A stretch of DNA of 45,577 nucleotides, counting the filler, from Jimgerdemannia flammicorona (Eukaryota): the NCBI GenBank assembly GCA_003990765.1. It is 2 parts of 2 records of this genome, joined end to end, with 100 filler letters (N's around TTAATTAATTAA, not from the genome) between each part and the next. Parts side by side here need not be neighbours in the genome. Positions count along the whole stretch, not along the records: positions 1 to 22,740 come from RBNJ01001210.1; positions 22,841 to 45,577 come from RBNJ01001211.1. One strand, given 5' to 3'. The notes under the pieces were generated by a model that saw only the letters and a program-made list of their open reading frames with translations, had not been told where the DNA came from and searched no databases. A program made the position numbers and the translations under genes. This document shows, piece by piece, positions 1,641 to 34,253 of the stretch (position 1 is the stretch's first letter; each line of letters opens with the position of its first letter).

Positions 1641-2051
1641 ATTATCCAGGTCAAGCTGCTTTCACCCTGGGCACAGCCACCTCTTGTATAAACAGAAGGA
1701 TCAGTTGGTTATGACCTCTGCCTCCCCTACCAAGCAAGAATCTGACCCAGAAGTACCAGGACTTTTGACCTACAGATCGTACTTGCTATACCATCTGGGC
1801 ATTATGGACAATTGGCCTCAAGATCCTCATTGGCAACCAAAGGAGTCACAGTAGAAGGAGGAGTCATCGATCAGGACTACCGAGGTCCCTTGAAGGCCAT
1901 TATCTACAATTCTAGTAGAACCAGCCAATTCTTCAGTCCTATGGAAGCCATCTGCCAAATTCTGTTTATCAAGACATTACAGCTGACCATCCAAGAGATA
2001 GACCAACTAGAAGATACCAACAGAGGACAAGGAGGCTTTGGAAGCACCAAT
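1641..2051 (+). pseudogene. dUTPase of element A (between PR and RT)
   Basis: All five trimeric dUTPase motifs: SVGYDL, ASRSSLA, GGVIDQDYRGP, EAICQILF, TNRGQGGFGST; two in-frame stops. Confidence 0.95.
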
Positions 2052-2509
2052 AGAAATCTACGGACACCACCTATCGAGGTTCATTTAGCAACAGTTGCTC
2101 AATTCCAACAAATGAGACCCCACATCTGCTGCCCAATCCGAGCAAGAGAAGACATCCTCCTGCAGCCCTACTAGCAAAAAGGCCTAGATGTGCACCTACT
2201 AGTAGAAGCAAACAACTTGATATTTGCACCATCACTGGAGCTTCAAAAGGAATACCACATCCTCCTGGCTAAAGAACGAATTCATGACCAGATGTCACCG
2301 ATCCACATCCCTATCAGAAACTTGGGATTCGAAGTGATAACTATCCCCAAGGGAACAACACTGGGATATTTCGAACCACTGATAGACACCTACGAGGAAG
2401 AAGTCTTCGAATTCTTGGGAAACAGCAAGTCCTCTCCGGTGAGACTGATGGTACCAGGGAGGAAGACTCAGCAAATTCAGCAACCAAAGCCATCAACATC
2501 AAGACAACT

Positions 2510-3890
2510 CTAACCAAGGACCAGCAACAACAGATACAGGAGTTGATAGAGGAGTATAAAGATATATTTACCACCACATATGATAACTTCCCACCATATC
2601 AATATGGAGAACACCCTATACATACTGGAGATGCAAGACCAATCCGACAATGACCCTACCGAACACCACATCATCTGATTGAATTCGAACAACAACACAT
2701 AGATGAAATGCTATGAAATGGAGTCATCAGACCATCATCAAGCCCCTGGGCTTTACCAGCAATCATAGTACCAAAGAAAGGAGGATGGAGATTAGTTGTG
2801 GATTTCAGAAAACTCAACAAAGTCACCACAGAAGATACCTACCCACTGCCAAGAATTGATGACCTCATCAATACCCTTAGAAAAGCCAAATACATGACCA
2901 CTACTGACCAGTTCCAAGGACTCCAAGTAATACCCATTGCCAAAGAAGATATCTGCAAGACGGTCTTTATCACCAGACAAGGACAGTATGAATACCTATG
3001 AATGCCCTTTGGACTCTGCAATGCACCTGCCTCATTCCAACAAATGATGAACTATGTCTACCGAGACCTCATTGGAAGAAATGTACTAGTATATATAGAT
3101 GATGTAATCATCTACTCTGAGACATTAGCAGCATTTACAAGACCTCTGCAAAGTATTTAATACCATTTGAAATTCAGGACTCAGACTCAATGCCAAGAAG
3201 TGCTTCTTCGGAAAACATCAAGTCGAATATCTGAGATATGTTGTCTCAGCTCAAGGAACACATGCTGATCCCCGCAAGGTGGAGAAAGTCAAGAACTACC
3301 CAACCCCGACCTCAGCAAAGGAGACCCTATCTTTCCTTATGCTGGCATCCTACTATCGATGATTCATCCCAAGGTTTTCAGATAAGGCAGCACCTCTCCA
3401 AGATATCTCCAAGAAGGACCAACCATTCTACTGGAAAGAAGGACAACAAAAGTCATTCGACCTACTCAAGAAGGCCCTTACTGAAGCCCCTGTCCTAGTG
3501 CAACCAGACTTTGGCAAACCATTCATCCTGGCAACTGATGCCTCAGCCTTAGGACTTGGATCAATTCTGTCTCAGCAAGATGACCAGAAGAGGGAGCATG
3601 TTATCGAATATGCTAGCAAGACTACAAATGAAACTCAAGCAAACTATGGAGCCACTAAGTTGGAATGCCTAGCAGTAGTTTGGGCTGTAGACCACTTCCG
3701 ACACTATCTCTTGGGAAAGAGATTCGCCCTCATCACTGACCATCAAGCTCTACAATGGTTGTTCAACAAGCCGGAGCCCTCTGGAATCTTCGCTAGATGG
3801 ATCATATCTCTGCAAGAATATCAGTTCACTATTGTCTACAAGAAAGGTGCTAAGAATTCCAATGTCGATACCCTGTCAAGAATTCCATAA
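2510..3890 (+). pseudogene. Reverse transcriptase and RNase H of element A
   Basis: [32 protein letters not shown] (3092-3103), LATDASALGLG, LECLAVVWAV, TDHQAL. Confidence 0.95.
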
Positions 3891-4109
3891 AACTGACAAG
3901 AAGGGAAAGAGCCCCCACAAGAGAAGGCTACTTCCCGCTCACCCAAATGAACCAAGAATTGTGCCTCACCCTCACCTAGAGTCTGTACCATAGAAGCTTC
4001 AAGAAAGGAATCCAACCAGCCCACAAGTTGTTTATCCAAAGAAATTTTAAGAAATTCTAAGAAGGTGATGGTGAACTTTGGAGAGTAGAAGGAGAGCAGT
4101 ACACCCGAG

Positions 4110-5166
4110 TTCCAAGAGAAGAAGAAATATTGAAGATCCTGATAACAAATCATGACCCAAATGCACACCAAGAAATTGGCACCACAATCGCAAGAATCAA
4201 GAAGCGATACTGGTGGCCCAAGATGAGAAAATAAATTTCAATGCACATTCAACAATATGATACCTGCCAAAGATACCGACAAAAGCCTACTGACAGAGTA
4301 CCATTAATACTGATTACAGCACCAGCTGGAGTCTTTCAAAGACTGGGAATAGACATTATTGGACCCCTACCAGTAACCAGCCAAGGAAGACACTATATCC
4401 TCACTATTGAAGACTACCTGACAAAATGGCCTGAAGCCTTTGCCATTGAGACTGCTGATGCCCAGACAATTATTGGGATCCTGTATGATGAAATTTTCAG
4501 CCACCATGGTGTGCCCAAGGAAATCATTACAGATCAAGGCCGAGAATTCATCAACCAAGCCATGAAGACCTTTGCGAGCAACTTCAAGATCAAGCTACGA
4601 CCAACAACAGCCTACCACCTACAGGCAAATAGACTTACTGAACGAATGAACCAGACCATCAAGCGAGGTCTCAGTAGAACCGGAGATCAACTAAACTGGG
4701 ATATCTATCTACCGGCAATTCTGTTCAGCATCCGTACCTCTAAGGCAACTGCTATCCAACAGACCCCCTTCTATTTGGTGTATGGCTGAGAAGCATATGA
4801 TCCTACTGAACCAGTCCAGCTAGATCTGTCAAAATGAGTCACAGAAGAGATCATTCGGTTACACGACATACACCACAAGCACAAGGATTTATTGCCAAGG
4901 CACAAGAATGACAAAAGAGGTACTACAACTGCAAAGCTGACCTCGAACCCCTACTCATTAGACAAAAGGTTCTGGTGTACTGTACCATCATAGAAGGAAA
5001 TTGGAGTATCAAGCTTGAACCAAAATGGGAAGGCCCCTATCTCATACACCAAGTATTCCCAAACCACACTTATCAACTCAAGACCTTGGATGGAGTTATA
5101 CTCAAGACTAAGATACACTGCAACTGCATAAGACTCTACTACTCAAGAGAAGCAAAACGCATTTAA
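4110..5166 (+). pseudogene. Integrase of element A (HHCC, DDE core, C-terminal SH3-like part; no chromodomain)
   Basis: RYWWPKMR..DTCQ, GIDIIGPLP, ITDQGREF, LTERMNQT, TPFYLVYG, KLEPKWEGPY. Confidence 0.93.
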
Positions 5167-5479
5167 ACAATCCTGTTCACTCTGTCTGTGTCATCTCTAT
5201 TGGAGATACAATGGATGTTTCACTCGGAACTCAAGAAAGCCAAGAACATTGGAACCAGACTCAAGCCCATCTATGTGACAGGCATTGTTACTAAGAAATT
5301 GCCTCAGATTACAAGAAATACTATTTCCAATGGGTTTGAACCCCCAGCCATGACTATGGGAGGCCTTGCCCTAGACAAGGATGGCCAGTCCTCACAAATG
5401 CACTGACATTCTGCTCATCCCTTGAGTTAAGACCACCCAACTCTGTGTAACCCTCACCGCCAAGGATGGCTCTAATTTT

Positions 5480-5491
5480 GCAAGAGGCAGA
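5480..5491 (+). promoter_or_regulatory. Degenerate polypurine tract of element A
   Basis: GCAAGAGGCAGA immediately before TGTG; preceded by the AGGA-loop hairpin also found before the PPT of B and C2. Confidence 0.7.
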
Positions 5492-5572
5492 TGTGATGTC
5501 TATAATCGACCGTGTCCAAATTCGGAGTATCCTGTGACCACAAGATCAGATGACATTATGGTGCGATAACTG

Positions 5573-6694
5573 GTGACCAGCCCAAACCGTCAAGTGATTT
5601 CACCAAAAGAAGACAAGATGATCCAAGCCAAAATGAAGACCACATTATTTAAGGAACCATACTCTGCCTCAGGGATCAGTATCAAAGAACCAAGTACTCA
5701 CCACACAATACCTCCCATTCGCCGATCCAACCAGACCTCCCACCACTCTACCCCTTTGCCTGGCCCAAAGACCCTGATCTTTGAAGCTATCAAGAAGGCC
5801 ATCTGGTGCCCAGATACTTCCAAACACTTGAACTTCTATATCGAGGACCTTGGACACTTCATCAACTACTGGTATACAATGACCCAACAGCTCAAAGACA
5901 CTACCGAACGAATGACCCTCTGGCATGACTACGAAATCGGACACCGCCTTCACAATGAGACTCAAGAAGACAACCAGGAAGACCTCATTACTGAATTGAT
6001 AACCACCAGCCAGCTGATCAAGAGAGCTCTCCATGTTCATCAGATATTCTGCTACATCCCCTAGGCCATAGCATACTTGCAAGGAGTAACAGCCGGCAGT
6101 CTTGCCCATCTCTCAACTGAAGATGCAGACTGGATAGAATCAGAAGTAGCCAACTCTATTGGTAGCAACTGGGTCACTGTAGGAAGCCAACAAACCAAAC
6201 CTACTTAGCCAGGTTTCCACACCACCCCACTCCGAGACAACCATCAAGGTCACCTAATGAGTCTTATGGAGATATTTGAAGGACTGCCCATTACCATAGA
6301 AGTACCCATTGGAGCTACCCCAACCACCCACCACCCTGTCAGCCACAATTTACATCTCATCATTTGGGAACCGAATCAAGAAGAAGCTCAAGAGGTCCCT
6401 GTCTTTGAAGAGGAAGCCCAAGAACTCCAAGACCCTGCCCCTGAAGAAACCCCCTCTGATACTGAAACTGACAAGTCTTCAGAAGAAGAAGAGGAGCAAC
6501 AGAGAGTCTACCAGTCCTCTGTCCGCATTCAAGCTGTTCAAGGGTTGGAGAATATTGTTGAAGATGACTGGCCACTTTTCTACCCCCTCATCTCTTGGCC
6601 AGCACTTCCCCCTTTTGAGGAGAGGTATGATGAAGAAGAAATCATAACCCAGCAAGATTTGCCCACCATGGATGAAGGGTACTATTCCCTCTAG
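5573..6694 (+). pseudogene. LTR-embedded accessory ORF (ORF-X), ~370 codons, conserved core plus acidic C-terminus
   Basis: ORFs 5573-6064 and 6257-6694 and the gap between them are one frame broken only by TAG at 6062 and 6206; core LWHDYEIGHRL...ALHVHQIF matches post-integrase ORFs in C1 and C2; true start codon uncertain. Confidence 0.75.
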
Positions 6695-6735
6695 AAATAC
6701 CACCTATCAGCCACAAGAATTGTACAGCCTTTATG

Positions 6736-7040
6736 TCAGCATTTTGTCAGCAAGTCTGAATCCAGCATTGCTACCCAGCACAACCATTTCCAGCATTGCT
6801 ATCCAGTGCCACCATTTTCAGCATTTTGTCAGCAAGTCCGAATTCAGCATTGCTACCCAGCACAACCATTTCCAGCATTGTTATCCAGTGCTACCATTTT
6901 CAGTGTTTTGTCAGCAAGTCCGAATCCAACGTTACTACCCAGCACAACCGTTTCTAGCATTGCTATCTAGTGCCACTGTTTTCAGCATTTTGTCAGCAAG
7001 TCCAAATCCAGCGTTGCTACCCAGCACAACCATTTCTGGC
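6736..7040 (+). repeat. 82-bp tandem repeat (~3.7 copies) in U3 of LTR A
   Basis: Units start at 6736, 6818, 6900, 6982 (TCAGCATTTTGTCAGCAAGTC...), each with two internal CCAGCATTGCTAYCCAG subrepeats. Confidence 0.95.
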
Positions 7041-7167
7041 AACAATCGTCATATCCATATCCATCCATGTCAGTAAGTCAGCCCTTCATATTGTGCAAGC
7101 CAATAGCATAGTGAAGTTCGCCACAACATAGTATACCTTAGCCCCCCCCCCATAGCTAGCAAATTTG

Positions 7168-7199
7168 TATAAATAACCCTATATCTTAGAGTGAATAAA
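7168..7199 (+). promoter_or_regulatory. LTR TATA box and polyadenylation signal
   Basis: TATAAA 7168-7173 and AATAAA 7194-7199 followed by CCTCAG, same layout as B LTR (TGTATAAATA...AATAAAGCCTCAG). Confidence 0.7.
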
Positions 7200-7202
7200 A
7201 CC

Positions 7203-8559: not shown

Positions 8560-9139
8560 AATTTCAATAAGATAGGATACCAGATGGCCTATGATGGTTC
8601 TTTTTGATAAAATAATACTATTTTAGTTTTAGTTAGTTGCTTGAGAGTACACAGAATTCATCTTATCAGAAAATATATATCCTTCTATATCAAGGTTCTT
8701 GAGATTCTTATTAGATTCAAAGAAGAGATTTCTAGGATTAGATAGTGCAAATATTTCAAAGATGGTCTGCTCTCTTGATTTTAGGATGAGATTCTTATAT
8801 AGCTTAACTAGTTAGTATTATACTTATTGAGAAGTATTCTTCTTAAAGTAGCTGATCTAGAGGAGATATACTTTTTTCTTATCTGAGCTTTTAAATTCTT
8901 TAGTTTGTCTTATACCTTGAGTCAGTTCAGAGACTTCTTATAGTTGGAGAGTCTTGACCTTTATGAAGATTGCTTGTATAATCTTTACTCTTTGTAGATT
9001 TAGTTCTATTCTATACTACTATTGTTCAGAATGACTCTAATTTTGTCTGTGTATTATTTCTCTTTCTATATTTATTTCTTATCTAGTAAGTCTGGATCTT
9101 GAGATCAGTTACATATAAGTTTCTTTGAGTGATTATATT
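8560..9139 (-). mobile_element. Heavily mutated family-C gypsy fragment (dUTPase C-terminal part and downstream linker)
   Basis: Colinear similarity to ~24975-25560 (C1). Confidence 0.88.
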
Positions 9140-9542
9140 TGTAACATTTTAGTGTAGTTTATTCCTTTTCTTTGTCTTTCTCCAATATTCTATGACCTTC
9201 TGGTACTTTCTGAATGCTTAGAAATCCTTTCTTGGTGCCAAGCATTAACTAGTACTTATTTAGTTAGTCCTGGAATGTCCTGGAAACTTGTAGAACTTTA
9301 TTTGTCATCATTTGTCATCTTTGCCGTGAACTTTCCTCTTGGTATTTTCCTTCGATTTCTCAGATCCTTCCAGATCCTTCTTTCAGATCTTGTATAAATA
9401 TCCCCTTTGTTCTCATAAATAAAGCCTCAGAATATTTTCTCCCAGAAATCCTTCGAGAACACTTGAATCCTTAGTATCTCTTTGAGCTACTTAGGACTAC
9501 CAGAATTAGTCACTTCCTCATTTAGAAACTAGAACTGTTACA
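9140..9542 (+). repeat. 5' LTR of element B
   Basis: Direct repeat of 14767-15169 (about 21 differences by hand count), TGTAACA/TGTTACA termini. Confidence 0.98.
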
Positions 9543-9544
9543 CT

Positions 9545-9556
9545 TGGTAGCAGTGG
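9545..9556 (+). promoter_or_regulatory. Primer-binding site, initiator tRNA-Met type
   Basis: TGGTAGCAGTGG 2 nt after the LTR; complementary to the ...GCUACCA end of eukaryotic tRNA-iMet. Confidence 0.8.
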
Positions 9557-9610
9557 TGAAGTTACACCTAGCCTTATCAAGACACCTCTCAAGATATCAG
9601 TCACAACACT

Positions 9611-10600
9611 ATGGAGGACAATGGGTGGAACCCTTCATACAGTACCTACAGTCCAGGCAATGCCTCTTACCACCAGCAAGAAGAAGAAGAGGAACAGCCA
9701 ATCCCCACCCAGTCAACTGGGTCCATCGAAAGTTTTTTGCAAACTGCATTAGCCCAGATCGCCCAACTTCAAGAACGTGTAGAAAGAAAGGAAAGCAAGG
9801 CCTCCGCTCATACCTCCGCACCTCCACCAACATCAATACATCCGACAGCAGTCACTATCAAGCCTCAGAAGCCTGACACCTTTGATGGTCAAAGAGGAGG
9901 ACTGTCTACCGATGCCTGGCTTTTCCAATTGGAGCAATATGGAGAACTGACCAATTTGGAAGAAACAACACTAGTCCAATTTGCTGCCACACTCCTCCGA
10001 GGGAATACTGCAATCTGGTGGTGAAATCATGTCCAGAATACCAGATTCTCTAGCCGAATCAAGACCTGGGGTGAATTCTCTGATGCTATTCAAGGCCAAT
10101 TCAAACCAGTCAACAGCACCAAGGCTGCGCGAGACCATCTGGCAAATGTCAAACAACTCAAGTCTGTACAAGCATAAAATGCACAATTCCTGTTAATCCT
10201 GCTAGAATTACCACATGTCACTGAAGATGAGAAGGTGGACAAGTACATCCAAGATTTGAAAGGCCAAACCCGAGTTCGTGTTGAACTAGAAGAACCCAAG
10301 GACCTAGACACAGCAATGAAAATTGCTGATAGGTTTGATGTCATCACCTATGGTCACCGCTTTGAACAGAAGAGACTGCCTTTCAACAACAACAACAACC
10401 ACAGAAGGGAGGAACCCAAAGTCAGAACTGTTGGACCTGCCCCCATGGACCTAGACACCATTGACAAGAGCAAGAAAGGCAAACTTACACCTGAGGAAAA
10501 GGAGCGCCTCAAGAAGGCTGGAGCCTGCTTCTTTTGCCATCAGCCTGGTCACATTGCAACCAAATGTCCCAAGAAAACTGCGGAACCAAAGAGGATCCTA
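9611..10600 (+). pseudogene. gag of element B
   Basis: KPQKPDTFDG, AWLFQLEQY, LRGNTAIWW, GPAPMDLD, zinc knuckle CFFCHQPGHIATKC; in-frame stops. Confidence 0.93.
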
Positions 10601-10639
10601 GTCCTGTCCAAAGACACTCAAGGTCAACTAGTCGAACAA

Positions 10640-11057
10640 AAAGTTGTACTCAATTTCATACAAGTCAACCCCAAGGCCCAGATCCCTCAAGCACAGTCAG
10701 AGGAGCCATTGGTTTGGACCTTCAAGCAGTACAACAAGTCACTATTCCGGCACATGAAGAAGGCTCATTCCAACTGGCCTTTCAGTCGAAATCTCCAAAG
10801 AACATTATGCAAGAATTGCACCAAGATCTGGCCTCAGCTTCAAGCACTCATTGGATGTTGGTGCTGGAGTCATAGACCCTGACTTTCGAGGTGAAATGCA
10901 AGTCCTGCTAGTCAACCACAAGAACCAGCCATATACTGTCAATGAAGGAGATAGAATTGCATAGCTCATTCTGGAGCGAGCCACTCTACCAGTTGTCAAA
11001 GAAGTTACCAAGCTGTCTTCCACCAAGCGAGATCAGAAAGGCTTTGGCAGCACTGAC
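10640..11057 (+). pseudogene. dUTPase of element B (between gag and PR)
   Basis: GAIGLDL, IAPRSGLS, GAGVIDPDFRGE, GDRIA*LIL, KRDQKGFGSTD; two 1-nt deletions and one stop. Confidence 0.95.
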
Positions 11058-11093
11058 AAAGTTGCAAGCATAGCTGAGAACTGAGCCAATTCA

Positions 11094-14000
11094 ATGCTCA
11101 TTTTCAAAGGTCTAGTCAAGGGACAAGAACTAGATGTTCTCATAGACAGCGGAGCTATTGGGAACTTCATCAACAAGAACCTCATCGACAAGCTCAAGAT
11201 TCTCACCAAACCAGCTGGCAAGAATGGTGGAGTTGTCACTATAGACGGCACCACCTTACCAATTGACTCAATTGCCACTAAACTTCTCCTCAAGATCCAG
11301 AAGTACTGGGAACGTTTAGATTTCGAGGTAGCACTACTAAGAGACCATGACCTGATTCTAGGCAAACCCTGGCTTACATGGCACAACCCTCAGATTGATT
11401 GGACCAAGAATGAAGTCACCTTGATTCAAGATGGAGTCAACATTACCATCAAACCAGACAAGACTCAGATGAGAACCCCAATTGCTACCCTTTCAGCAAT
11501 CCAGTTCAAGAAGACCCTCAAGAAAGCTACCTGTGCCTTTGTGGCACTGATCCGACCAAAGAAAGAAGACAAGAAGCTATCAATTGATGAAAGCATCAAG
11601 TTACTACTGAACAAGTACAAGGATGTCTTCCCAGACAAACTACCTGGTCTACCACCTTCAAGAGACCATGACCATGAAATCAAGTTGGTACCTGATGCAG
11701 CTATACCTAAGAAGAAAATGTACTGTATGTCTCCACTCGAAATTGAAGCAGTCAAGAAGGAACTCAATGAACTCATCGAGCAAGGAGCCATTCAGCCAAG
11801 CAAGTCACCCTTTGGCTCCCCAGTCCTATTTATCAAGAAAAAGGATGATACTCTGCGAATGTGCATAGACTACCGAGCACTCAACAAGATCACTGTCAAG
11901 AACCACTATCCACTACCACTCATAGATCAAATCTTTGATGCTCTCAAGAATGCAAAGTACTTCACCAAGATTGATCTCACCTCTGGGTATCACCAAATTC
12001 GAATCAAGCCAGAAGATATACCCAAGACTGCCTTCATGACACCCTTTGGACTCTATGAGTTTCTAGTCATGGCCTTTGGTCTCACTAATGCGCCAGCAAC
12101 CTTTCAAGACCTCATGCAAACTGTCTTTAAGGATCAGCTCTATATCTTTGTACTTGTGTACATTGATGACATCCTGATCTTCAGTAGCACCGAAGAAGAA
12201 CACCTCAAGTACATCGAACAAGTCCTCAAGATCCTCCGCGAGAACAAGCTCTATGCAAAGCTCAAGAAATGTGAATTTTTCAAGGATCAAGTCGAATACC
12301 TTAGACACATTATATCAGCCAAAGGAATTCAAGTAGACCCAAAGAAAATACAAGCCATTGAACAATGGCCTGTACCAGCAAACCTCACTGAACTCAGGTC
12401 CTTCCTTGGTCTGGCTGGATACTACTGTCGATTTGTCAAGAACTTCTCTGGCATCACAGAATCTTTGACAAACCTCCTGCGAAAGGAACCCAACTCTGAC
12501 CTCTATGTTCCCTACATCTGGGATATCTTCTGTCAACAAGCCTTTCAAGAACTCAAGAACTGCCTGACCCATGTACCTGTCCTTAGAAACATGGACCCAA
12601 ACTTGAAGTTCACGGTCACTACAGATGCATCTAACTTTGCCATTGGTGCAGTCATTTCTCAAGATGATGGTCAAGGACACCGACCTATTGCCTTTGAGTC
12701 AAGAAAATTGTCCCCAGTAGAACAAAAGCTGGCTACTCATGAAAAGGAACTCCTGGCAATCATACATGCCATCAAGACCTAGCGATACTATCTAGAAGGA
12801 GTTGAGTTTGACATGATCACTGATCACAGATCCCTTCAGTATATCAACACTCAACCAACCCTTTCTCGCCAACAAGCCAAGTGGAGTCAACTGCTTCAGA
12901 CCTTTACCCCAAACATCATCTACAAGCCTGGCAAAACTCTAGTTGTACCAGATGCACTTTCAAGGAGACCTGACCTTGCCACAATTTTACAAGTCATCAT
13001 GGTACCTGAATTCCTCAACCAGATCAAGAAGGCGTACGAACAAGACTCTCTGGTTCTACAAAGAAACACCAAGGAATTCAAGGAAAAGTACACCATCAAG
13101 GACAACCTCGTATACTATCAAGACAAAGTATATATTCCTGCCAACCCTGAACTATAATATAAGATTCTCCATGAACACCATGACTCTCCACTAGCTGGCC
13201 ACCTTGGAACTGAGAAGACCATCAAGAATATCCAACGAGACTACTACTGGCCAAACATGCTCAAGGAAATCAAGGAGTATGTCCAAAGCTGTGATCTTTG
13301 CCAAAGAAACAAGTCAAGCAACCAAGCATCTGCCGGTCTTCTACAACCCTTGTCAATTCCGACCAAGAAGTTCGAACAAGTCACAATGGACTTCATTGTA
13401 CAACTCCCATGAACCAAAACAGGCTATGATACTATTGTTGTGTTTGTGGACTGTCTCACCAAGATTACAATCGCCAAGCCAACCACAACCAATGCCACTG
13501 CCCCAGAAATTGCAAGAATCTTCTTCAAGACTGTCTTCCACCATTATGGACTTTCCCGAGTAATTATCAGTGACCGTGACCCCAAGTTCACAAGTCACTT
13601 CTGGCAAGCACTCTTCAAGACTCTTGGAACCCAAATTGCTATGTCTATGGCTTTCCATCCTCAAACCGATGGACAGACAGAGCAAATGAACAGAACACTT
13701 GAACAAATGCTCAGAAACTACGTGTTCTATGAGCAAGATGATTGGGACTACTATCTGACTTACGCCGAGTTCGCCTACAATAATGCCAACCAATCATCAA
13801 CTGGCCTTTCCCCATTTCAGCTACTTCATGGTCAAAACCCCAAGACCCCTGCAAGTTTAGTCCAATTCCAGCAATCCAGTCATACATAAGTCTCCACAGC
13901 CCAGAACCTTATCGACAAAATGGATTCTCTTCTCAAGATCGCCACTACAAACCTGCAAAAGGCTCAGCAATATCAAGCTAAGTATGCAGATAAGAAGCGG

Positions 14001-14453
14001 CAAGATGTCACATACAACATTGGCAATATGGTTCTACTCAAAGCCAACAACATCAAGGCTCAATCTCAAGTCAACCGCCAGTCAGCCAAATTCCAGCCCA
14101 AGTACCTTGGACCCTTCGAGATCACTGAGCAAGTCTCTATCTGGTCTTACCATCTCAACTTGCCAACAACCATGCATATACACCCAGTATTCCATATGTC
14201 ACAACTCAAGGCCTGGAACCAGTCACCCCCATACCCTGGCTGAATTCCGACACCATCAGCACCAGTCATAGTTGAAGACCACATCAAGTATGAAGTCGAG
14301 AAAATCTTAGACAAACAAGTCCAATACCATCGCACAGAATACCTAGTCAAGTGGATGGGTTACCCTGAATATGACGCCACCTGGGAACCTGCCGCCAACC
14401 TCAAGAACTCCCAAGACCTCATCCAAGAGTTCGAGCAAAAAGGAACTCATTGA
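11094..14453 (+). pseudogene. pol of element B: PR-RT-RNaseH-IN-chromodomain
   Basis: [61 protein letters not shown]; several stops. Confidence 0.97.
14289..14440 (+). other. Integrase C-terminal chromodomain
   Basis: YEVEKILDKQVQYHRTEYLVKWMGYPEYDATWEPAANLKN, aromatic cage Y/W/Y present. Confidence 0.95.
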
Positions 14454-14753
14454 CTGCCCGTGAGGTTCTCCCCTTGGATAGTAGATGACCTACTGTGCTG
14501 ATCAGGCACATTATGCATTGGGGCTCTCTAAGGGATACAGCATCAGAAGTAAGAGATACAGGAGAACCCTATAAATCCTGCAACCAATGAGGTTTGAACC
14601 AGTTCTCATCTGATCAAGATGATACTTTGGCCCTCACCTTATACAAGGATGGCCAATCCTTGCCAATGAGTCGGTATAGTTAATTTGAAGTTTCTTTTAG
14701 TCTTATTGTTTATCATGTGTATCTTTGAGAATTCAACGAGGACGTTGATTCTT

Positions 14754-14766
14754 AAGGAGGGGGAGA
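14754..14766 (+). promoter_or_regulatory. Polypurine tract of element B
   Basis: AAGGAGGGGGAGA abutting the 3' LTR. Confidence 0.95.
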
Positions 14767-15169
14767 TGTAACATTTTAGCGTAGTTTATTCCTTTTCTTT
14801 GTCTTTCTCCAATATTCTATAACCTTCTGGTACTTTCCGAATGCTTAGAAATCCTTTCTTAGCACCGAGCATTAACTAGTACTTATTTAGTTAGTCACTG
14901 AATGTCCTGGAAACTTGTAGAACTTTATTTGTCATCATTTGTCATCTTTGCCAAGAACTTTCTTCTTGGCATTTTCCTTTGATTTCTCAGATCCTTCCGG
15001 ATCCTTCTTTCAGATCTTGTATAAATATCCCCTTTGTTCTCATGAATAAAGCCTCAGAATATTTTCTCCCAGAAATCCTTTGAGAACACTTGAATCCTTA
15101 GTATCTCTTCGAGCTACTTAGGACTACCAGAATTAGCCGCTTCCTCATTTAGAAACTAGAACTGTTACA
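14767..15169 (+). repeat. 3' LTR of element B
   Basis: Direct repeat of 9140-9542. Confidence 0.98.
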
Positions 15170-18100
15170 TGTTTCTTAAAGAATTCATACTTCTTGAGCT
15201 TGGCATAAAGCTTATGTTTTTGCAGGATCTCCAGGACTATTTGAATATATTTGAGGTGTTCTTCTTTAGTTGTACTAAAGATCAGGATGTTATCAAGATA
15301 TATCAACAGGAAAATAAATAGTTGGTCCTTGAATGTCTTATTCATCAGAGTCTGAAATGTGGTGAGTACATTGGTGAGACTAAATGTGAAGACCAGGAAT
15401 TCATAGAGTCCAAAGGGGGTCATAAACATAGTCTTGGGAATGTCTTCTGACTTAATTCAAATCTGGTGATATTCTGACATAAGGTCTAACTTGGTGAAGT
15501 ACTTGGTATTCTTGAGAGCATCAAAGATTTGATCAATCAAGAGTAATAGATAGCAGTTCTTGACAGTGAGTTTGTTGAGTGCATGATAGTCTATGTATAT
15601 TTGCAGGGTACCATTCTTCTTCTTGACAAATAGAACTGGTGAGCTATAAGGAGATTTGCTTGGCTGGATGGCTCCTTATGTAAGTTGTTCTTCTAGTTCC
15701 TTCTTGACTGCTTCAACTTCAAGTAGTGATATGTAGTACATATATTTCTTGGGTAGTATAGCTCCTGGGGTCAGTTTGATTTCATAATCAACTTCTTGTA
15801 TAGGTGGTAGACCAGATAGCTTGTCTAGAAAGACATCCTTGAATTCTTCTAGTAGTAGCTTGATGTTTTCATTAACTGATAGTCTCTTGTCTTGTTTCTT
15901 GAGGTGAATTATTATAATAAAGACATGTATTGCCTTCTTGAGTGCTTTCTTATATTATATAGCTGATAGTGTTGCAATCTGGGTCTTACTCATAGTCTTG
16001 TCTGTCTTGATCATAATGTTGGCTCCATCTTGAAGTAGAGTAACTTCATTCTTATACTAATCAATATCTGGATTGTGTTTCATGAGCCAGGGTTTTCCTA
16101 AGATCAGGTTATGATCTTCTAGTAGTACAATCTCAAAGTCTACTTATTCCTAATATTTCTGGATCTTGATGGGTAGTTCGGTAACAATTGACTCAATGGA
16201 GTATAGAGTACCATCTGCAGTGACTATACTATTATTCTTGGGTGCAGGCTTGGTGAGGATCTTGAGGCTTTCGATGAGATTCTGATTGATGAAGTTCCCT
16301 GCAGCTCCACTATCTATGAGTACTTGAACTTCTTTTCCTTTGATTAGGCCTTTGAAAATGAGCATAGCTTGAGCTCAATTTTCACTAAGACTTGCTGCTT
16401 GATCAGTGCTGCCAAAACTCTTTTGATCTCATTTGGTTTCAGGGAGTTCTTGGACTTCTATAATCTTAAGTTGACTGGCTTTTTCCAGGATAATTTGTGC
16501 GACTCAGTCTCCTTCTTTAACTGTGTAGTCTTGATCCTTCTAGTTGACAAGCAAGACTTGAACTTGTCCTCAAAAGTCTGGATCAATAATACTAGTACCT
16601 ATATCTAAATGATGTTTGATACTGAGTTCTGATTATGGTGCAATTCTAGCATAATGTCCTTTAGGGCATTGAACTGCAATTCCAGTAGACACTAGAGTAC
16701 AACCCTTGGCTGGAATAGTGACTTATTTGACTGAGTGTAGGTCAAGACTAATGGCTCCTTCTGTTTGATATTGAGAGACCTGGGCCTTCAGATGAAGTTT
16801 CTTGATCTTGAACTCAAGTTGACTGATAGTGGAATTGACAAATATATCCTTGGACAACATGGTGACTGGTCTTGAGAGTTCGCTAGTCTTCCTAGGATAT
16901 TTGGTTGCAATGTATCCTGTTTGGTGATAGAAAAAACAGGCTGTGGATTTCTTCAGGTGGTCCTTTTCTTCAGGGGTGAGCTTGGTGTTCTTTTTGTTCA
17001 TAGTGTCTAAGTCCATTAGTGCCAGGCCAACTGTCCTTGGTTGGTTTCTGTAGCAGTTCTCAAAGTGGTTCTTCTTGTGGCATTCTGGCTCAAAGCAGTT
17101 ATCAAAGGTGATGATATTAAATTTATCAGTGATTCTCATAGCTTTATCAAGAGTTTTGGGCTCTTCTAGCTCAACCTTGACTTGTGTATTTCCCTTCAGA
17201 CCTTGGATATAGCAGTCTATCTTTTCATTCTCAGATACTGCTGGTAGCTTGAGTAGGATTGATAAGAATTGTATATTATAGCCTTGAACAGACTTAAGTT
17301 GCTTGATGTTTACTAGCTTGTCCCTGGCTAGCTTAGTGGCATTAGCAGACTTGAACTGCTTGTGAAGGGCTCTCTTGAAAGCTTCCCAATCTCTGATTCA
17401 TATATATGAGTATACAGATATAACCATAATATGATTGCACTACCAGATAGCTATATTTCCTTGGAGGAGTGTGGTGGCAAATTAGACTTATATGTCATCT
17501 TCCATTCTTATAAGTTTGAAGTATTGGTCCAACTAGAAGATCCATACATCTGTAGATAGTTCTCCTCAATGGCCATCAAAGATATCTGGCTTAAGTGGCT
17601 TGAAACTGACTAGTGCTATGGCAGGATGTGATGTTTCTATAGTTTGTATTTTCTGGTGTTCTACTTGTACTTGCAGTTCTTGAATTTGGTGGGCCATAGT
17701 ATTGATCATATCTTCTATGTTGAGCTGTAATCCTTCTACTTCTTCTATAGCAGAGGGGTCTGACTGATAGACTGACTCTTCATGGCTCATTTCAGGTTCA
17801 TGTGACTAGTTGTGACTGGTTTCTGAATTCATGTCAGTTTCTTAATAAGGCAAGGTATAATGACACTACTGCTACCAAGTGTAACAGTTCTAGTTTCTTT
17901 AAGAGAAAGTGGCTAAATCTGGAAGTTCTAGTTGATCTAAAGTAGTTTGAAGAGATACTTAAAGGTTCAAGTATTCTTGAAGAATTTCTGAGAGAAAATA
18001 TTCTGAGCTTTATTTAGGTAGAGAACAAGGATATTTATACATAATCTGAAAGAAAGATCTGGAAGGATCTTGGAAAGAAAGAGAAATGCCAAGAAATAGG

Positions 18101-18343: not shown

Positions 18344-21300
18344 ATATCTCTACTATAATAAGATATAAGAATGAGTAAGCAGGTCATCCATCTCCTACTA
18401 CTGATCAAGAAGTAGGCCCATCTACTCAGCCAGAAGCTGATATCCTCTTTGAAGAACCTAGTCAGTATTAGGATACATACTATCTTATCAGAGAAGAGAG
18501 TCAGATGAAGACTCAGAAGGATATCAGTTTAATGATAGCCAACAAGGAATAGCAGGTCCAGAAATCTATTAAGAATATATAGGTCAAGAAGATCAGACCC
18601 CAGAACCAATTCAGCCACCTATACAGAGGTTTGGTTTACTCACCCTTATAGAACTTTTTGATCTAATCTCTAGAAATCAAGTAATGCTAAGTTATATAGT
18701 ACTACAACCTCATCAGGCAGAATAATCTTCAGGAGAATCTACCCCTACAGGCCTACCACCAACAGTCAACATAATGGTAGATACTAATATTGCAGCTCTG
18801 ACTATCCAGCTGGCCACAATAGCATTAATAGTAGAACAAATTACCAAATAGAACAAACTAACTAAGATCTTACAAATTTCCACTTTTAGTAGAAGAAATA
18901 GTGATATTGAAATTTTCATTAATGTAGTAGATATAAGGTATCAAGCAAATCAATGGAATTATAACTAAGTATCTACTGGGATACTTACCAATAACCAAGA
19001 CAACACTCTTCAATAGCTATTTGCTACATCAGCAGTATAAATGGAAACAGTAGTCACATTCTTCACTGAAATAGTAGCTGAGTTCTGAAATATCTTAGAT
19101 GAATACCCAGTAATCTGAGAAGACCACCCTCAAGTCAATGGACAGATACTTGCTCATAATAGACCAGATTGGGATAACTATATAGCAGGCCCAGGCCTCA
19201 AGATCCTGCTACTGAACAAATTCTGAAATACAGCCTATATATAAGAAATTTGAAACAAACTAGCCCAGATGAAGTTTCACAAAAATAGTAAGGAGGATTT
19301 AGAAACCTTTGCCACTAAGATAGATACCTATATTAAAATTATAGGACTTATCTATTAAAAAAACAATTTGGCCATCAATGGTACCAGAGCTAACCATCTT
19401 TTTGTAGTCCTACCAGACTGACTCACCCAGAAGATTAAGGAACAAGGTCTCTTCTAAGGATGTTCCCACTACTTATAATACTTTGCCCAGATATAAAGAA
19501 GAGCCCATGAAATTCTTGTTATACAGGCCCTATGCAATTCAGAATACAAGAAGAACAACAAAGATAGAAGGAACCCTACTAGAAGAAATGATCAAAAGAA
19601 TAATCAAAGGAATGACCAAAGGAACCAGTGAAATTCCAGAGAACCAAGACCCCCTAATGAGGATGAAAAGAAGTAGTTTTGTGAAAAAGAATTATGCTTC
19701 ATTTGTAGGAAAGCAGGATATATCTCTATTAGATACTCTGAGAAGAGAAATAGATCAGATGAACCTAGTAACCAGAACATCACTATTATTAGAGAAGGTC
19801 CAGAAAAGAAGAACTCCAAGAATATTATCAAAGTACAGAAGATATGGTATAAGACTATTATCTCCACTAAAACCCATCCCACATATACAGGATATGACCT
19901 CTACAGTAGCCAAGACCTCACTATTCTACCAAGTATCAATACTATAGTGTATACTAGAATTACAATATAAGCTTCCAAAGGAACATAAATCCATCTTGCT
20001 AAATGAAGTAGCAAGGCCAAAGAATTCAACATAGGGCTAGAAGGAGGAGTAGTTGACCAAGAATTTACTAGTGAAATCTATATTATCTTATAAAATTTTG
20101 GAGATATCTCATTCAAAGTCAAAGCAGATCAAAGAATTGCCCAGGTAATTATCAAAAAAATCTGTTAAGATCTCACTATTGAGAAAGTCTCTGAGCTCTC
20201 CCAGACAGACTATAGCAAGAAAGAGTTTGGATCAATCAACAAACCCCTTAGTCAAAAGGTTACCACTATGAAGGAAGATGATAAAAACTAGTATAAGAGA
20301 ATTGTAGATAGTTATATATCATATAGATGATGTCATCATTCTATTTAAATATACTGTATAGAATATATTAGTGAATACTATGTATGCCTCTCCAAAGTTT
20401 TCAAAATCCAATCTAAGAAGTACTAAGCCTAACAGACTGAGGAATCTAAACAAGACCACCCCACTCTTCTTATAAAAGATAGGGAGAGGTTGACTTTGAG
20501 AAGACTGACAGCAATTAGGATAATGAGAGTGAAGAGCTCAATACTATCAAGAAGGAGGACAGTTGCATCAGGTTCACAGGTCAAGTTTACAGACAGAATG
20601 TCAATGTCTTACTTGACAGTAGTACTACTAGAAACTATATCAGCACTAAGACTATCAAGATAATTGGAGTCTGAAGCAGACCAGCTATTGAGAAAAGGAG
20701 TATTACCTTTGGTGATAGTAAGACTATACCTTTGACCAAGATCTGTGAAGACCTATTGCTCAGGATTGGTAAATATTAAGAGAAGTTAGACTTTAGTATC
20801 ATAGATCTTCTAGGATAAGATATTATTATAAGAAAGGTCTAGTTGACTCAGTATAACCCAGATATCAACTAGAGGACCAATGAGATTAACTTGATCCATA
20901 AAGGTAGAAAGATCACTCTGTTACCTTAAGAGGACACCAATCATCAAGGAATCAAAATCATCTCTACTATTCAAATGAAGAGACTCTTCTATAAAAAAGG
21001 AAACACATACTTCATCTATACTATACAAGAAGTTACTGAAGTCTAGAGTAGCCCAATCTCACCAGAAGTTCAAGAATTATTTAAAGAATTTCAAGATACA
21101 TTCCAGGAACCCAAAGGACTTCCACCTAAGTATCAAATCTAATATGGAATTGATCTCATTCCAGAATCTAAACATCTATATAAGAGTATCTATCAACTGG
21201 CCCAACCTGAACTCAAGATTCTTAAGAATGAGTTTACCAAACTATTGGCCCAAAGATATATTGAACTCAGCCATTCCTCATTTGAAGCCTTTATTCTATT

Positions 21301-22580
21301 TATCAAAAAGAAGGATAGCTCTCTATAAATATATATTGACTATAGAGCTTTCAACAAGATCACCATCAAGAATCAGTATACCTTGTCTAGGATTTATAAG
21401 TTATTGTACCAAATATTCAAGGCCAAGACCTTTTCTCTACTGGATTTGCAAAATTGTTACCATCAGATTCTCATTAATGAGAAGGACATTGAGAAGATAG
21501 CTTTCCAAATGCAGTTTGGATACTATTAGTTCTAAGTCATGCCTTTTGATTTAACTAATATATTAGCAATATTCTAGTATCTGATAAATAATATCTTTGA
21601 ATTACTGCTTAACATTTGTATTCTTATATATATTGATGATATACTAATCTATAGCAAAACAGTAGAGCTATACTATACCCATCTCAGGCAGGTATTAATC
21701 CTTCTATAAGAATACCAGCTCTATACTAAGATGAGTAAGTACAAGTTCTATCAAGACTAGATTGAGTATTTAGGGTATATCATTTCTGCTGAAAGTATTA
21801 ATATAGACTTTTGAAAGATATCAGCTTTCAAGGATATCTTTATCCCTACTATCCATAAGCTGCTCCAGCACTTCCTGAGTATTATTGGTTACTACTGAAG
21901 ATTTATCTAAGAATACTCTACTATTATAGTTCTACTGATTAGCCTGGCCTACAAAGGAGTGAACATCAAGACCAAATAGACCCCTGAGTACATCCAGGCT
22001 ATAGATCACCTTAAGAGACTCCTTTCTGAGACCCCAGTACTAATTATATCTAACTTTACTAGACCATTCACTCTGACTACAAATGCCTCTAATATTGTCA
22101 TTAGAGTAGTACTCAGTCAAGAAGATTACTCAGTGGCCTATCTCTCCCAAAAGCTCAAGCCAACTGAGACTCAGTATACTACTCATGAGAAGGAACTCCT
22201 GGCCATTGTTACTGCACTCCAGAAATGGTGCTATTTTCTCCTAGGACAACTATTTGTAGCCTATACTAATCACTATGCTCTGCAGTATATTTATACATAG
22301 CCCATACTGACCCATAGACATATCTGTTAGATAGAAATCATTGCTAACTTTGATATAAAAATCATATATATCTCAGGCAAAATCAACTATATGACTGATG
22401 GTTTCTCTGAGTATATAGAAGATGAACTTGTCTTTATGGTTAAGATAATTGGAGACCTTACTCAAATGATTAAGGATGACTATGCCTTATGTAAGATGTA
22501 CTAAAGATTCATAAGTAGTAACAAGCTACTAGTAGAACTTTTGCAACACCTGTCTATCCTGAGTTATAACTGAGATCAGA
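18344..22580 (+). mobile_element. Degenerate Ty3/gypsy element D: gag-dUTPase-PR-RT-RNaseH, both ends truncated
   Basis: CFICRKAGY knuckle (~19695), VLLDSSTTRNYI protease (~20600), IDYRAFNKIT, YIDD (~21630), [15 protein letters not shown]. Confidence 0.92.
19850..20243 (+). pseudogene. dUTPase of element D (between gag and PR)
   Basis: TGYDLYS, LAK*SS, EGGVVDQEFTSEI, DQRIAQVII, KKEFGSIN. Confidence 0.88.
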
Positions 22581-22585
<5 letters not shown>

Positions 22586-22625
<40 letters not shown>

Positions 22626-22740
22626 GTCGCTTGGACTCCTGTAATAGAACGAACGAACGAGGGAACAGATGGGACGCGACGAGCGACGAACGACGAACGA
22701 CGAACGACGAGCGATCACGTGACCCGGCGTGTTTTGTCGT
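22586..22740. repeat. T37 tract followed by a CpG-rich ACGA/CGACGAA repeat segment; possible end of a young non-LTR insertion
   Basis: Poly-T 22586-22622, then GAACGAACGAACGA, CGACGAACGACGAACGACGAACGACGA and TCACGTGA; ends at the gap. Confidence 0.55.
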
Positions 22741-22840
22741 NNNNNNNNNNNNNNNNNNNNNNNNNNNNNNNNNNNNNNNNNNNNTTAATTAATTAANNNN
22801 NNNNNNNNNNNNNNNNNNNNNNNNNNNNNNNNNNNNNNNN
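22741..22840. other. Artificial assembly gap/linker (N44-TTAATTAATTAA-N44)
   Basis: Exactly 100 nt, symmetric, central 12-mer gives stops in all six frames. Confidence 0.97.
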
Positions 22841-22859
22841 AAAAAAAAAAAAATATATC

Positions 22860-23300
22860 TATTCCATCATCTTCATTATCTGTACTATGGTCACTCTATT
22901 CCAAAGACTCCTCTTCTTCCTCAGAAAATAGAGTCTCAACTTGATGGATGATACTGAGGTAGATGGGTAGGATCATTCTTTGGAGATTATTCAGAGAGAA
23001 CTGGGCCTAGATCAGAGCTGAAGAGTTCCATTTGTAGATTGTATATAGTCTTTCTGCAGTAGTAGTGTCCCTTCTGTTCAGGCCAGTAGTATTGCAGACA
23101 TAGACCAGGTCTGAGAGGGGAAGATTCTGTAATTATTCTCCAATTGCATAGTAGGCCTACAGCTGGTGGACCTAGAGTAGTCTCTTAGCCAGAGTGAGGT
23201 TCTTTTAATGAACCTGGATTCTTTGGAGATATGTTCCATTGAGTGCTCAGAACTGTAGCAGAGAAATTGGTAGAGCTTAGAGAGAACTAAGGACAAGGGT
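22860..23300 (-). pseudogene. Post-integrase accessory ORF-X of C1
   Basis: L*AYYAIGE*L...AERLYTIYKW...acidic tail SEEEEESLE*SDHSTDNEDD; matches A ORF-X and C2. Confidence 0.7.
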
Positions 23301-25294
23301 GGGGAGAGGTATATCTTGAGGTAATTGATATATATTGGTATTCTCAGGGTTCATCCATCCATACTTCTTAAATAGATGCTAGTTCTTCTGATATTGTATA
23401 CAAGATAAGGTCCTTTCTATTTAGGCTCTAGTTTGGTAGCAAAGTTGGTTTCAATTATGCTTCTCCAAACTAGTATTTGATCTCCAATCTTAATATTCTG
23501 ATCCTTCTACTTCTGGTCAGAGTACTTCTTTTGTCTTTCTTAAGCTTTGATAATCTGAGCTTGGACTTGATTATGTAACTGTTCTGCCTTCTTGAGGAGG
23601 CCTCCAAAGTCCTTATAGTCAGTAGTTTTAGTTTTCTTAGCAAATATCATTTCAAAGAGCTTTTGTTTGGTGGAAGCAGTAGGGGTATTCTGAATTTCCC
23701 ATAGGATCTCAGGTAAGCAGAGGTTCTAGTTAGTAGGATTGACTCAGGCAAGTCCTTTCTTGATGGTCTGGTTCATTTTTTCTACCATACTATTGGTCTG
23801 AGAGTAGTATGATGTAGTGGATTTTATGGATTTGAATATAACTTGGAATTATATTATTGATGAATTCTGTGCCTCAGTCAGAGATAAGTTCTTCTGAGGG
23901 TCCATATCTGAGTGTAAGTCTATGGAGAAGGTCTATAATAGTTAAGATATCTGTAATTTCTATTGAAAAAGCCTTGGGCTACTTGATCAGATATTTTATA
24001 AATACAAAGATATACTTATTTCTTCTTGATATAACTGATAGGGGTCCAATTACATCTACTTCCCATCTCTGAAAGATATTGTCTAGTGGTATGATTGGTT
24101 GTAATAGTGCTTAGTAGTTCTTCCTTTCTTAGTACTTCTGATAGGTATTATATTTCTTGAGTATGTTCTAGACTTGTGTTCTAATATTGGACCAATGTTG
24201 GTGTATTGTTTGCAACTTTTCTTCTATATTTACTTGTCCTTGATAGGCTTTCTGGTATTCTTTTCAGATGAGATCTTCTTATACTTAAAGAGTTTGAGGA
24301 GCTTCCTTTAGAGTGTAGTTCCTCAGTATATCCTTCTTCTGGTTCATTAGAGTTGGCAGAAAAGTATATTAACATTGTTGTAAGCTTTCTCTGCTTTGTG
24401 GATAATAGTGATTTTGTAATCCTGAAGGATAAAGATCCAGCAGACTTGTAAAAAGGTCTATACTGCTGAAGTATCTAGTATCTTGTAACTGGTCCAAAAG
24501 GTCATCAATTCTGGGCAAAGGATAGGCATCCTTTTTGATTACTAAATTGAGTTTTCTGTAGTCTACACAGAGTCTCCATCCTCTTTTCTTTGGTATAATA
24601 AGTATAGGACTGGTCTAGGGGCAGGTTGAGGGTCAGATGACTCTATTGTCTAAGAGTTCTTAAATGTATTCCTTTTTGAATATCTTTAAGTGATGGAGTA
24701 TTCTATAGGGTTTCTACTGAATAGATATTGCATTTTCTATATTTATACTATAGTGATATGATGAGTTATAAAGCAGGTTATCATAATTTGTAGTGAAGAT
24801 ATCTTGATATTTGTTGAGGAGTTCTACTAGATTTTGCTATTGCTGGAGTATCAATTCTTCTCCAATGTTGGTGGAAGGCTTCACTGTCTCCTGGATTGCA
24901 GAGGGGCCTTTTCTTTCTTCTGGGACCTTTTGCTATTTCCCAATAAGTTGAGTTCATAGACTTCTCTATAGGTTTAGTTGAGAAAGAGCACTAGATGTCC
25001 TATGATGGTTTCTTTTGACAAGATAATGCTTTCCCAACTCTGGTTGGTTGCTTGGGAGTACACTGGGTTCATTTTGTCAGAAAATATGTATCCTTTAATA
25101 TTTAGATTTGAGATATCTTCATTAGGTTTGAAGAAGAGGTTTCTGGAGTCAGGTGGTACAAAGATTTCGAATGTGGTTTACTCTCTAGACTCCAGGATGA
25201 GATTCTTGTACAGTTTGACAGATTGGCAGTATACTTGCTGAGAATTATTCCTTTTAAGGTGATTGATCTGAAAGAGATATACTTCCTTCTTATC

Positions 25295-25700
25295 TGAGCT
25301 TCTGAATCCTTCAGCTTGCCTTGTTCCTTCAGTCAGTTTGGAGACTTCTTGTAATTGTGGGGTCTTGACTTTTATGAATACTGCTTGGGTAATCTTCTGT
25401 CCTCTAATGATTTAGTACTATTCTGTACTACTGTTGTACAGAATGACCTTAATTTCACCTATATATCCTGGATCTATAATTCCTCCTTCTATAGTTATTT
25501 CTTGCCTGGCAAGTCCAGATCTTGAGATCAGTTGGATATAAGTTCCTTGGGGTGGCTTTATGGCTAGTCTAGTTTTGAACATCAGTGTTCTTTCAGGCTT
25601 GATGGGTTTATTCTCCAGACTGTAAAGGTTATACCCTATATCTTCTTGGTGAGCTTTGGTCAGGGGTTTGGCCTTGGGATATAGCAGGGCATACTGGGCA
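25295..25700 (-). pseudogene. dUTPase of C1 (between PR spacer and RT)
   Basis: IGYNLYS, ISRSGLA, GGIIDPGYIGEI, GQKITQAV, TRQAEGFRSS. Confidence 0.92.
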
Positions 25701-34195: not shown

Positions 34196-34253
34196 TCTCT
34201 CCTCTACACCATTTTATGTACCTCTCATGCCTAATCTTCTCCTGTTCACAACG

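Follow-up and report, generated by a model that had tools for sequence, protein, structure and literature searches.

Almost every Ty3/gypsy retrotransposon of the fungus Jimgerdemannia flammicorona encodes a dUTPase domain (DU), and in two families this domain is followed by a second one, here named DU', which is predicted to adopt the dUTPase fold without recognisable catalytic motifs. The window, that is, the whole 45,577-nucleotide stretch of DNA analysed here, consists of two contigs of this fungus (a genus of Endogonales) joined end to end, C1210 at positions 1-22740 and C1211 after a run of N; since the join falls between families D and C, these two are not neighbours. The six dUTPase copies claimed in a first-pass annotation of this DNA are all real. 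Five (families A, B, B', D and C) are recognised by Pfam PF00692 at 70-99 bits, for a curated cut-off of 22 bits, and the sixth (8878-9139, minus strand) has no Pfam hit, falling below that cut-off, and scores 31 bits on a local DU profile. The stretch 8579-9131 matches family C (24990-25554) at 75% DNA identity; together with the profile score, this identifies the sixth copy as the decayed 3' two-thirds of the DU of a C copy, cut at 9140 by the long terminal repeat (LTR) of element B. The two polyprotein layouts were likewise borne out: protease (PR)-spacer-DU-spacer-reverse transcriptase (RT) in A and C, and gag-DU-PR-RT in B, B' and D. All "four gypsy families" of the first-pass annotation carry DU, but their number was too low, B and B' being separate families (66% identical in RT, 57% in DU).

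The order PR-RT-RNase H (RH)-integrase (IN) and the gypsy-type RT and RNase H place the elements of the window in Ty3/gypsy (Metaviridae). A chromodomain follows the integrase in B (Pfam Chromo, 65 bits), B' (L073) and F (L093); family D is truncated, with no chromodomain seen, and was assigned to the chromoviral clade by its RT alone (89/98). Every DU copy of the window contains stop codons, and that of B a frameshift besides. Elsewhere in the genome, stop-free frames over DU were found for A, B, C and D, as well as for E and F, two families outside the window, while family G was met only as decayed copies. In stop-free copies DU lies in frame with Gag or PR (B, L103; F, L094, L096 and L101; E, L154; through PR in A, L129, and in C, L155). 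L103, L094, L096 and L101 have gag-DU-PR in a single stop-free frame, which extends to RT in L103, and family D is represented by a stop-free DU-PR-RT frame (L095). In family E (L154:116-4312) the single open reading frame (ORF) ends directly after RNase H, and in the A copy of the window (3830-4110) the RNase H frame likewise stops ahead of the integrase.

PF00692 gives 96-122 bits for six stop-free representative DUs, one for each of these six families, and all keep the five dUTPase motifs in the order 1-2-3-4-5, with the catalytic Asp, Ser, Gln and Phe-Gly-Ser. Although the six DUs are only 30-44% identical, the catalytic Asp, Arg-Ser, Gln and Gly-Phe-Gly-Ser are invariant. Variation is found elsewhere: the motif 3 Tyr is Phe in B and D, the motif 4 Arg varies in A, C and F, and at motif 5, L103 has Gln where the B copy of the window keeps the Arg. 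As dUTPases of the trimeric type, the DUs would hydrolyse dUTP and form homotrimers.

How common DU is was assessed in the assembly (231 Mb, 35,354 contigs, completeness unknown). A first-look, unscored search returned at least 8,265 DU, at least 7,947 gypsy RNase H and at least 1,188 copia RT candidates. DU is present in all eight gypsy families seen (A, B, B', C, D, E, F and G); the DU of A recurs in the genome in at least 150 copies that are 88% or more identical, and that of C has 132 matches at 73% or more. Prevalence was sampled in 590 kb, made up of the initial 10 kb of each of 59 evenly spaced contigs at least 13 kb long, where local profiles, built from DU-bearing families such that a divergent DU-less protease could be hidden, and including an RT profile that also reached retroviral RTs, called 18 PR, 16 DU and 15 gypsy RT. 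DU is present in all eight sampled elements that have PR as well as RT (a fraction with a lower 95% bound of about 0.63), L034 being left out because its PR and RT come from different elements. Ten of the 15 RTs have DU upstream, four run off the stretch, and one belongs to a truncated copy that also lacks PR. Similarly, 14 of the 18 PRs adjoin a called DU, one has a DU start at the end of the stretch, one lies near a contig edge, and two are weak fragments. DU is thus near-universal in the Ty3/gypsy elements of this genome. A comparison of the DU-bearing fraction with that of relatives had been proposed; for this genome, it is eight of eight families and eight of eight sampled PR- and RT-bearing elements.

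The copia elements of the same genome offer a control. L070, a complete gag-PR-IN-RT copy, lacks DU, and the PR-to-RT distance is 1,718-1,846 nt in 57/57 contigs, which is the spacing of L070 and would not accommodate a DU; this comparison, made by eye between 150 RT rows and 147 PR-IN rows, covers the PR-RT interval only. Many copia of these contigs keep long open frames, of up to 1,522 residues.

In families A and C, ORF1 ends just past DU'. The DU' domains of A and C are 26-29% identical in one alignment and 24-28% in another, and the C domain is 85% and 35% identical to those of two proteins from outside this genome, P0259 and P0261. An AlphaFold2 model with a mean predicted local distance difference test (pLDDT) of 77 was obtained from a ten-row alignment with DU' alone in the modelled columns; single-sequence prediction of DU-DU' gave a pLDDT of 29.5 and no usable model. 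When the DU' model was searched with VIA-align, the first 22 rows all belonged to the dUTPase/dCTP-deaminase clan, the next row reaching Z 5.0. The best match was the Epstein-Barr virus (EBV) dUTPase (Z 10.8, root-mean-square deviation 5.1, 101 aligned), and pp71 of human cytomegalovirus (HCMV) scored Z 10.1; the rows listed by Foldseek were also all dUTPases. These comparisons predict a dUTPase beta-clip fold for DU'. No catalytic motif is recognisable in it, the sole near-invariant residue being one Asp near the motif 3 position, and no Pfam family matches it at E up to 1. Every full-length sequence seen to contain DU' has a DU with intact motifs beside it.

A search of 1.84 billion representatives with the DU' profile gave eight matches: three DU-DU' proteins of the A/C kind, two short fragments resembling DU', two proteins of repetitive sequence that were taken to be noise, and P0263. 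With so few matches, a wide spread of DU' is not shown. A/C-type proteins with the PR-CysHis-DU-DU' layout, or its 3' part, do occur outside this genome (P0259, P0261 and P0264). None of the pre-RT spacers of 14 gypsy polyproteins from elsewhere matched DU' significantly (P0003 came nearest, at E 0.016), and Atlas look-alikes at 0.93, rotifer and nematode members included, are leads only. A literature search, with subscription papers outside its reach, found no account of a second or degenerate dUTPase-fold domain in retrotransposons, and the motif-less domain after DU in A and C seems not to have been described. The nearest parallel lies in herpesvirus dUTPase-related proteins (EBV dUTPase, 2we1; HCMV pp71, 8qdo; murine herpesvirus MHV-68 ORF10, 7byf), which also have two tandem folds, one of them motif-depleted. 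In the herpesvirus monomeric dUTPase, however, the motifs are split between the two folds, in the order 3-1-2-4-5, whereas in A and C the first fold has all five, in the trimeric order, and the second has none that can be recognised. A separate duplication, rather than the herpesvirus arrangement, is therefore suggested.

DU' is directly followed by a probable -1 frameshift site. RT lies in the -1 frame in 20/20 A loci and 15/15 C loci having both anchors, of the 30 and 20 loci given, and GGGAAAC/T occurs in phase in 18/21 A and 12/20 C loci, the remainder differing by G>A; one contig was counted twice in each family. With RT read through a -1 shift behind this heptamer, DU would be made at the level of Gag in both layouts.

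A further domain links the two clades. In A, C, E and G, this Cys/His module of about 50 residues (G-x-C-x-H ... C-x-x-C) follows PR and precedes DU; in D and F it comes after DU and ahead of PR. B, B' and the outside protein P0018 lack it, and the E and D copies found no Pfam family. The E module is 51% identical to that of D (L095 copy) and 41% to that of F, but only 20-21% to that of A or C, the opposite of what clade membership predicts, which makes it a second marker of exchange; DU and Cys/His modules have apparently moved between distant gypsy clades. The long PR-DU spacer of A and C (801-1450 in the window; L155:1374-2090) contains further Cys/His clusters besides the shared module.

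Table 1. Features of the window, with positions counted along the whole stretch.
Feature	Position	Strand	Basis or remark
dUTPase domain, family A, two stop codons	1641..2054	+	PF00692, 99 bits
dUTPase domain, family B, with a stop codon and, near 10,705, a frameshift	10640..11060	+	PF00692, 89.5 bits
dUTPase domain, family B'	16399..16812	-	PF00692, 97 bits
dUTPase domain, family D	19827..20243	+	PF00692, 70 bits
dUTPase domain, family C	25289..25699	-	PF00692, 85 bits
Decayed piece of a C copy, comprising the DU 3' part (8878-9139) and the DU' region, cut by B LTR	8579..9139	-	DNA identity, local DU profile
DU', predicted motif-less dUTPase-fold domain, family A	2109..2411	+	Alignment with C DU', hhalign, AlphaFold2 model and fold searches
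DU', predicted, family C, ending at G GGA AAT heptamer (24935-24941)	24935..25240	-	Model and fold searches
Heptamer G GGA AAC, in phase with ORF1, probable site of a -1 frameshift into RT, family A	2417..2423	+	RT frame and heptamer counts
Cys/His module, family A, between PR and DU	801..959	+	Alignment; local profile, 51 bits
Cys/His module, family D, between DU and PR	20280..20444	+	Local profile, 36 bits
Cys/His module, family C	26276..26431	-	Local profile, 22 bits
Aspartic protease, family A (non-chromoviral gypsy)	159..506	+	Pfam gag-asp_proteas, 44 bits
RT, RNase H and integrase, family A	2618..4831	+	Pfam
Aspartic protease, family C	27008..27400	-	Pfam on stop-free copy L155
Full-length chromoviral element B, gag-DU-PR-RT-RH-IN-chromodomain	9140..15169	+	Pfam, LTR pair
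Artificial contig join C1210/C1211	22741..22840	.	Not a real neighbourhood

The origin of the element DUs was approached by setting the DU tree against the RT tree, a check already proposed in the first-pass annotation. In the RT tree, B, B', D and F group with outside chromoviruses (89/98), apart from A+C and E+G. In a 64-row DU tree, B and B' instead join two soil proteins of the gag-DU-PR layout, P0018 and P0019 (100/93), and A, C, D, E, F and G, with two outside proteins, lie across a 96/85 branch from them. A cleaned set of 39 rows, from which decayed copies and a number of long outside sequences had been removed, paired E with F at 98/70, contrary to the RT tree. An approximately unbiased (AU) test on the larger set rejected the chromoviral DUs (B, B', D and F) as one clade (p=0.014). 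As judged from these trees, the history of DU does not simply follow that of RT, and transfer of DU between elements is likely, though not firm.

The host's own dUTPase gene (DUT; L032, G000:C33350) has three introns and intact motifs, and the nearest named single-domain relatives of its protein are Mucoromycota dUTPases, with which it groups in both DU trees; no element DU joins it. The AU test rejects B/B' together with host DUT (p=9e-6, a grouping chosen after the tree was seen). On the sequence evidence, the host can be excluded as the source of the B/B' DUs, and for the other element DUs such a capture lacks support. The best DU match of the genome (L001) was also dismissed as an element DU, being an intronless copy of the host gene with no gypsy domain within its 10-kb stretch. 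An intronless processed copy at L033:6595-7011 (G000:C6287) is 97-99% identical to the exons of the parent gene L032; its changes are of the CpG type, and some 430 nt downstream of it there is a poly(A) run. Reverse transcription of host DUT mRNA therefore does take place, and yet no element DU appears to descend from host DUT.

DU-bearing elements also occur outside this genome. Among the best 120 of 168 long proteins found with the DU of B, mostly retroelement polyproteins, DU precedes PR, separates PR from RT, sits between RH and IN, follows the chromodomain, or belongs to a protein of copia type; the CysHis-DU region of family E found just two long proteins. In the copia-type polyproteins P0002, P0101, P0113 and P0071, the dUTPase lies between PR and IN or between IN and RT, an arrangement that the cited papers leave unmentioned. 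Four Zingiber proteins (P0063, P0084, P0093 and P0110) combine dUTPase with RT/RNase H or viral protease domains and are possibly endogenous pararetrovirus-like.

In print, the available text of a survey of more than 150 families reports DU in few of them, among these three gypsy families of Postia placenta (PosPlaTy3-3, -4 and -5) with DU at the N-terminus of Pol, between PR and RT, and at the C-terminus, for which independent acquisition was proposed, and further DU-bearing Ty3/gypsy elements in Phanerochaete and in Tuber (Tmt1); it leaves the role and origin of DU in fungal LTR retrotransposons open (PMC2864245). The accessible portions of other reports describe DU between PR and RT in three of four LTR lineages of bdelloid rotifers (Juno, Vesta and TelKA), Juno having an extra zinc knuckle after DU (PMC5408684), DU between PR and RT in a giant planarian gypsy element (PMC6431247), and enrichment of dUTPase domains in Entomophthora muscae (10.1101/2023.09.13.557621). 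The literature search found nothing on DU in Endogonales elements, and PMC3248453 does not mention dUTP. These cases make the core of our finding known in kind, and the first-pass statement that DU is rare in LTR elements is not supported: Postia alone has three positions, and both layouts occur in public data. That annotation had also regarded DU being equally common in the same lineages of unrelated hosts as evidence against its reading; the occurrence of both layouts outside this genome goes part of the way towards that.

The fungal cases resemble ours in that one fungus has several gypsy families with DU at differing positions. They differ, as far as the consulted text of the survey goes (PMC2864245), in that here every gypsy family examined, chromoviral or not, carries DU, in thousands of copies, and in that a second dUTPase fold and a Cys/His module are not mentioned there. 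The bdelloid elements, as described in the portions at hand, are alike in that most LTR lineages of one host carry DU; unlike ours, they and the planarian element have a single DU position, an animal host and low copy number. What is already known, then, is DU in several gypsy families of one fungus; what is distinct here is its near-fixation across the gypsy population, the shuffled Cys/His module and the tandem eroded fold. The dUTPases of betaretroviruses and non-primate lentiviruses are similarly polyprotein-encoded and of the trimeric type, and the betaretroviral gag-DU-PR order is that of B, B', D and F. Betaretroviruses have a nucleocapsid-dUTPase layout in which DU opens a separate -1 pro frame, in contrast to the single gag-DU-PR frame found here, in elements that show no env and are gypsy by the RT tree.

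Element B is full-length. Its LTRs (9140-9542 and 14767-15169, 403 bp) are 94.8% identical, and no target-site duplication was found at its flanks, which derive from two different elements, a C fragment and a truncated B' copy; the other window elements are truncated or not delimited. This setting suggests a deletion, a recombination between two insertions, or an assembly join. Downstream of the element A integrase, an 82-bp unit is repeated three times in tandem (6736-7041). A CpG-undepleted island (34000-38000, observed/expected about 1.0) lies amid CpG-free repeats and holds short host-like genes with signal-peptide-like starts, one copy being on the minus strand near 36712-37242.

Taken together, these results lead us to a reading that we consider moderately probable as a whole: the DUs are element-encoded and of the trimeric type, were acquired anciently from a pool of mobile elements or viruses and not from this host, and were probably exchanged at least once, DU' being an old duplication in the A/C lineage. 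DU would have arrived with gypsy lineages that are not confined to this genome, and would be near-universal here because those lineages dominate its gypsy population. Of the exchanges, F, and perhaps D, probably acquired DU, the Cys/His module or both from an element resembling E. DU would be made within a Gag-containing polyprotein and probably released by the element protease in the particle; there, by analogy with retroviral dUTPases, it would break down dUTP and so lower the amount of uracil that RT incorporates into cDNA. DU' would most likely serve as a non-catalytic partner or spacer. Several results weigh against parts of this reading. Sequence ties DU' to DU weakly (hhalign probability 61%), its profile scores dUTPases no higher than reversed controls, and the best Foldseek match has E 1.2e-3, none reaching 0.001. 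The sequence past the heptamer folds with little stability (median z about -1.2 relative to crude shuffles). The DU tree was built on 138 columns and has long branches, and the incongruence test is unstable, chromoviral DU monophyly not being rejected in the cleaned set (p=0.129). A single clade of all element DUs with four outside rows was not rejected either (p=0.38, again a grouping chosen after the tree was seen). Finally, DU in eight of eight families over two deep clades exceeds what lineage luck easily explains.

The last point speaks for a host with high dUTP, or with a uracil-based restriction of cDNA, having favoured elements that repeatedly acquired DU and passed it on within the gypsy population, as the first-pass annotation proposed. 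The eight of eight sampled elements, the about equal DU and gypsy RNase H counts, the signs of exchange between clades and the minority status of the DU-less copia all fit such selection. We nevertheless regard it as unlikely. The copia elements, without room for DU between PR and RT, keep long open frames, and the same layouts occur in elements outside this genome. The host genes inspected, among them those suggested beforehand, offer little for it: DUT is intact, thymidylate synthase is matched over two exons, a uracil-DNA glycosylase (UDG/UNG) match consists of one 38-codon piece, and APOBEC_N (PF08210) gave no candidates in the genome search, the completeness of the assembly being unknown. 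Copies of A, B, C and F differ from one another mainly by C>T changes, at like rates on both strands (0.14-0.30 at CpG, 0.05-0.11 at CpA), which fits decay after integration and not minus-strand cDNA deamination, so that APOBEC-like editing was rejected; the pattern carries no information on dUTP pools. It also agrees with the earlier caveat that DU gives integrated copies no protection from C>T decay. A uracil-based host defence is thus not established. Retroviral dUTPases, in the part of a review available to us, are thought from lentivirus work to limit cDNA uracil in cells with low host dUTPase (PMC4531489).

The second rival, one old acquisition followed by vertical inheritance, with internal rearrangement shifting DU relative to PR and no transfer between elements, appears quite improbable to us. 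A single old origin of the element DUs is in itself possible, given the p=0.38 and p=0.129 results, and PR-CysHis-DU and DU-CysHis-PR differ by a swap about one module. Against it stand the rejection at p=0.014 in the larger set and the Cys/His identities, nearer between E and D than between E and A/C, contrary to RT relationships. Many gypsy lineages lack DU, so that many losses would be needed, in line with the few DU-bearing families of the survey's available text (PMC2864245). At least two independent captures or inter-element transfers, as first proposed, stand in part: the two positions of DU in the polyprotein call for at least one non-vertical event, the tree test rejects chromoviral DU monophyly in one set but not in the other, and capture from this host is not supported. 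A third rival holds that DU persists chiefly for something other than catalysis, such as trimerisation or spacing of the polyprotein, and that DU' is a case of dropped catalysis; it seems very unlikely. DU' is conserved without motifs, the herpesviral pp71 and ORF10 are among its best structural matches, and non-enzymatic roles of viral dUTPases have been reviewed (PMC4531489, in the part available); yet the catalytic residues are invariant over six diverged families, and DU' was never seen without an intact-motif DU beside it in full-length sequences. We retain ancient acquisition, with probably at least one exchange.

A bolder extension of this reading is speculative, and we hold it with considerable doubt: the DU-DU' of A and C would be an active and dead tandem, convergent with the herpesvirus duplication, with DU' as a pseudo-subunit or scaffold, and the pre-RT spacer of many gypsy lineages would be an eroded dUTPase fold, for which the Atlas look-alikes and the P0003 spacer are leads only. 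If so, the link between DU and gypsy elements would be ancient and under-counted, and active DU would have swept the gypsy population of this fungus by exchange between elements. In any case, one host offers a natural contrast between eight DU-bearing gypsy families in two layouts and copia elements without DU. DU', moreover, indicates that a dUTPase fold can hide in a retrotransposon spacer, beneath profile detection, and Pfam-based surveys may therefore undercount this fold.

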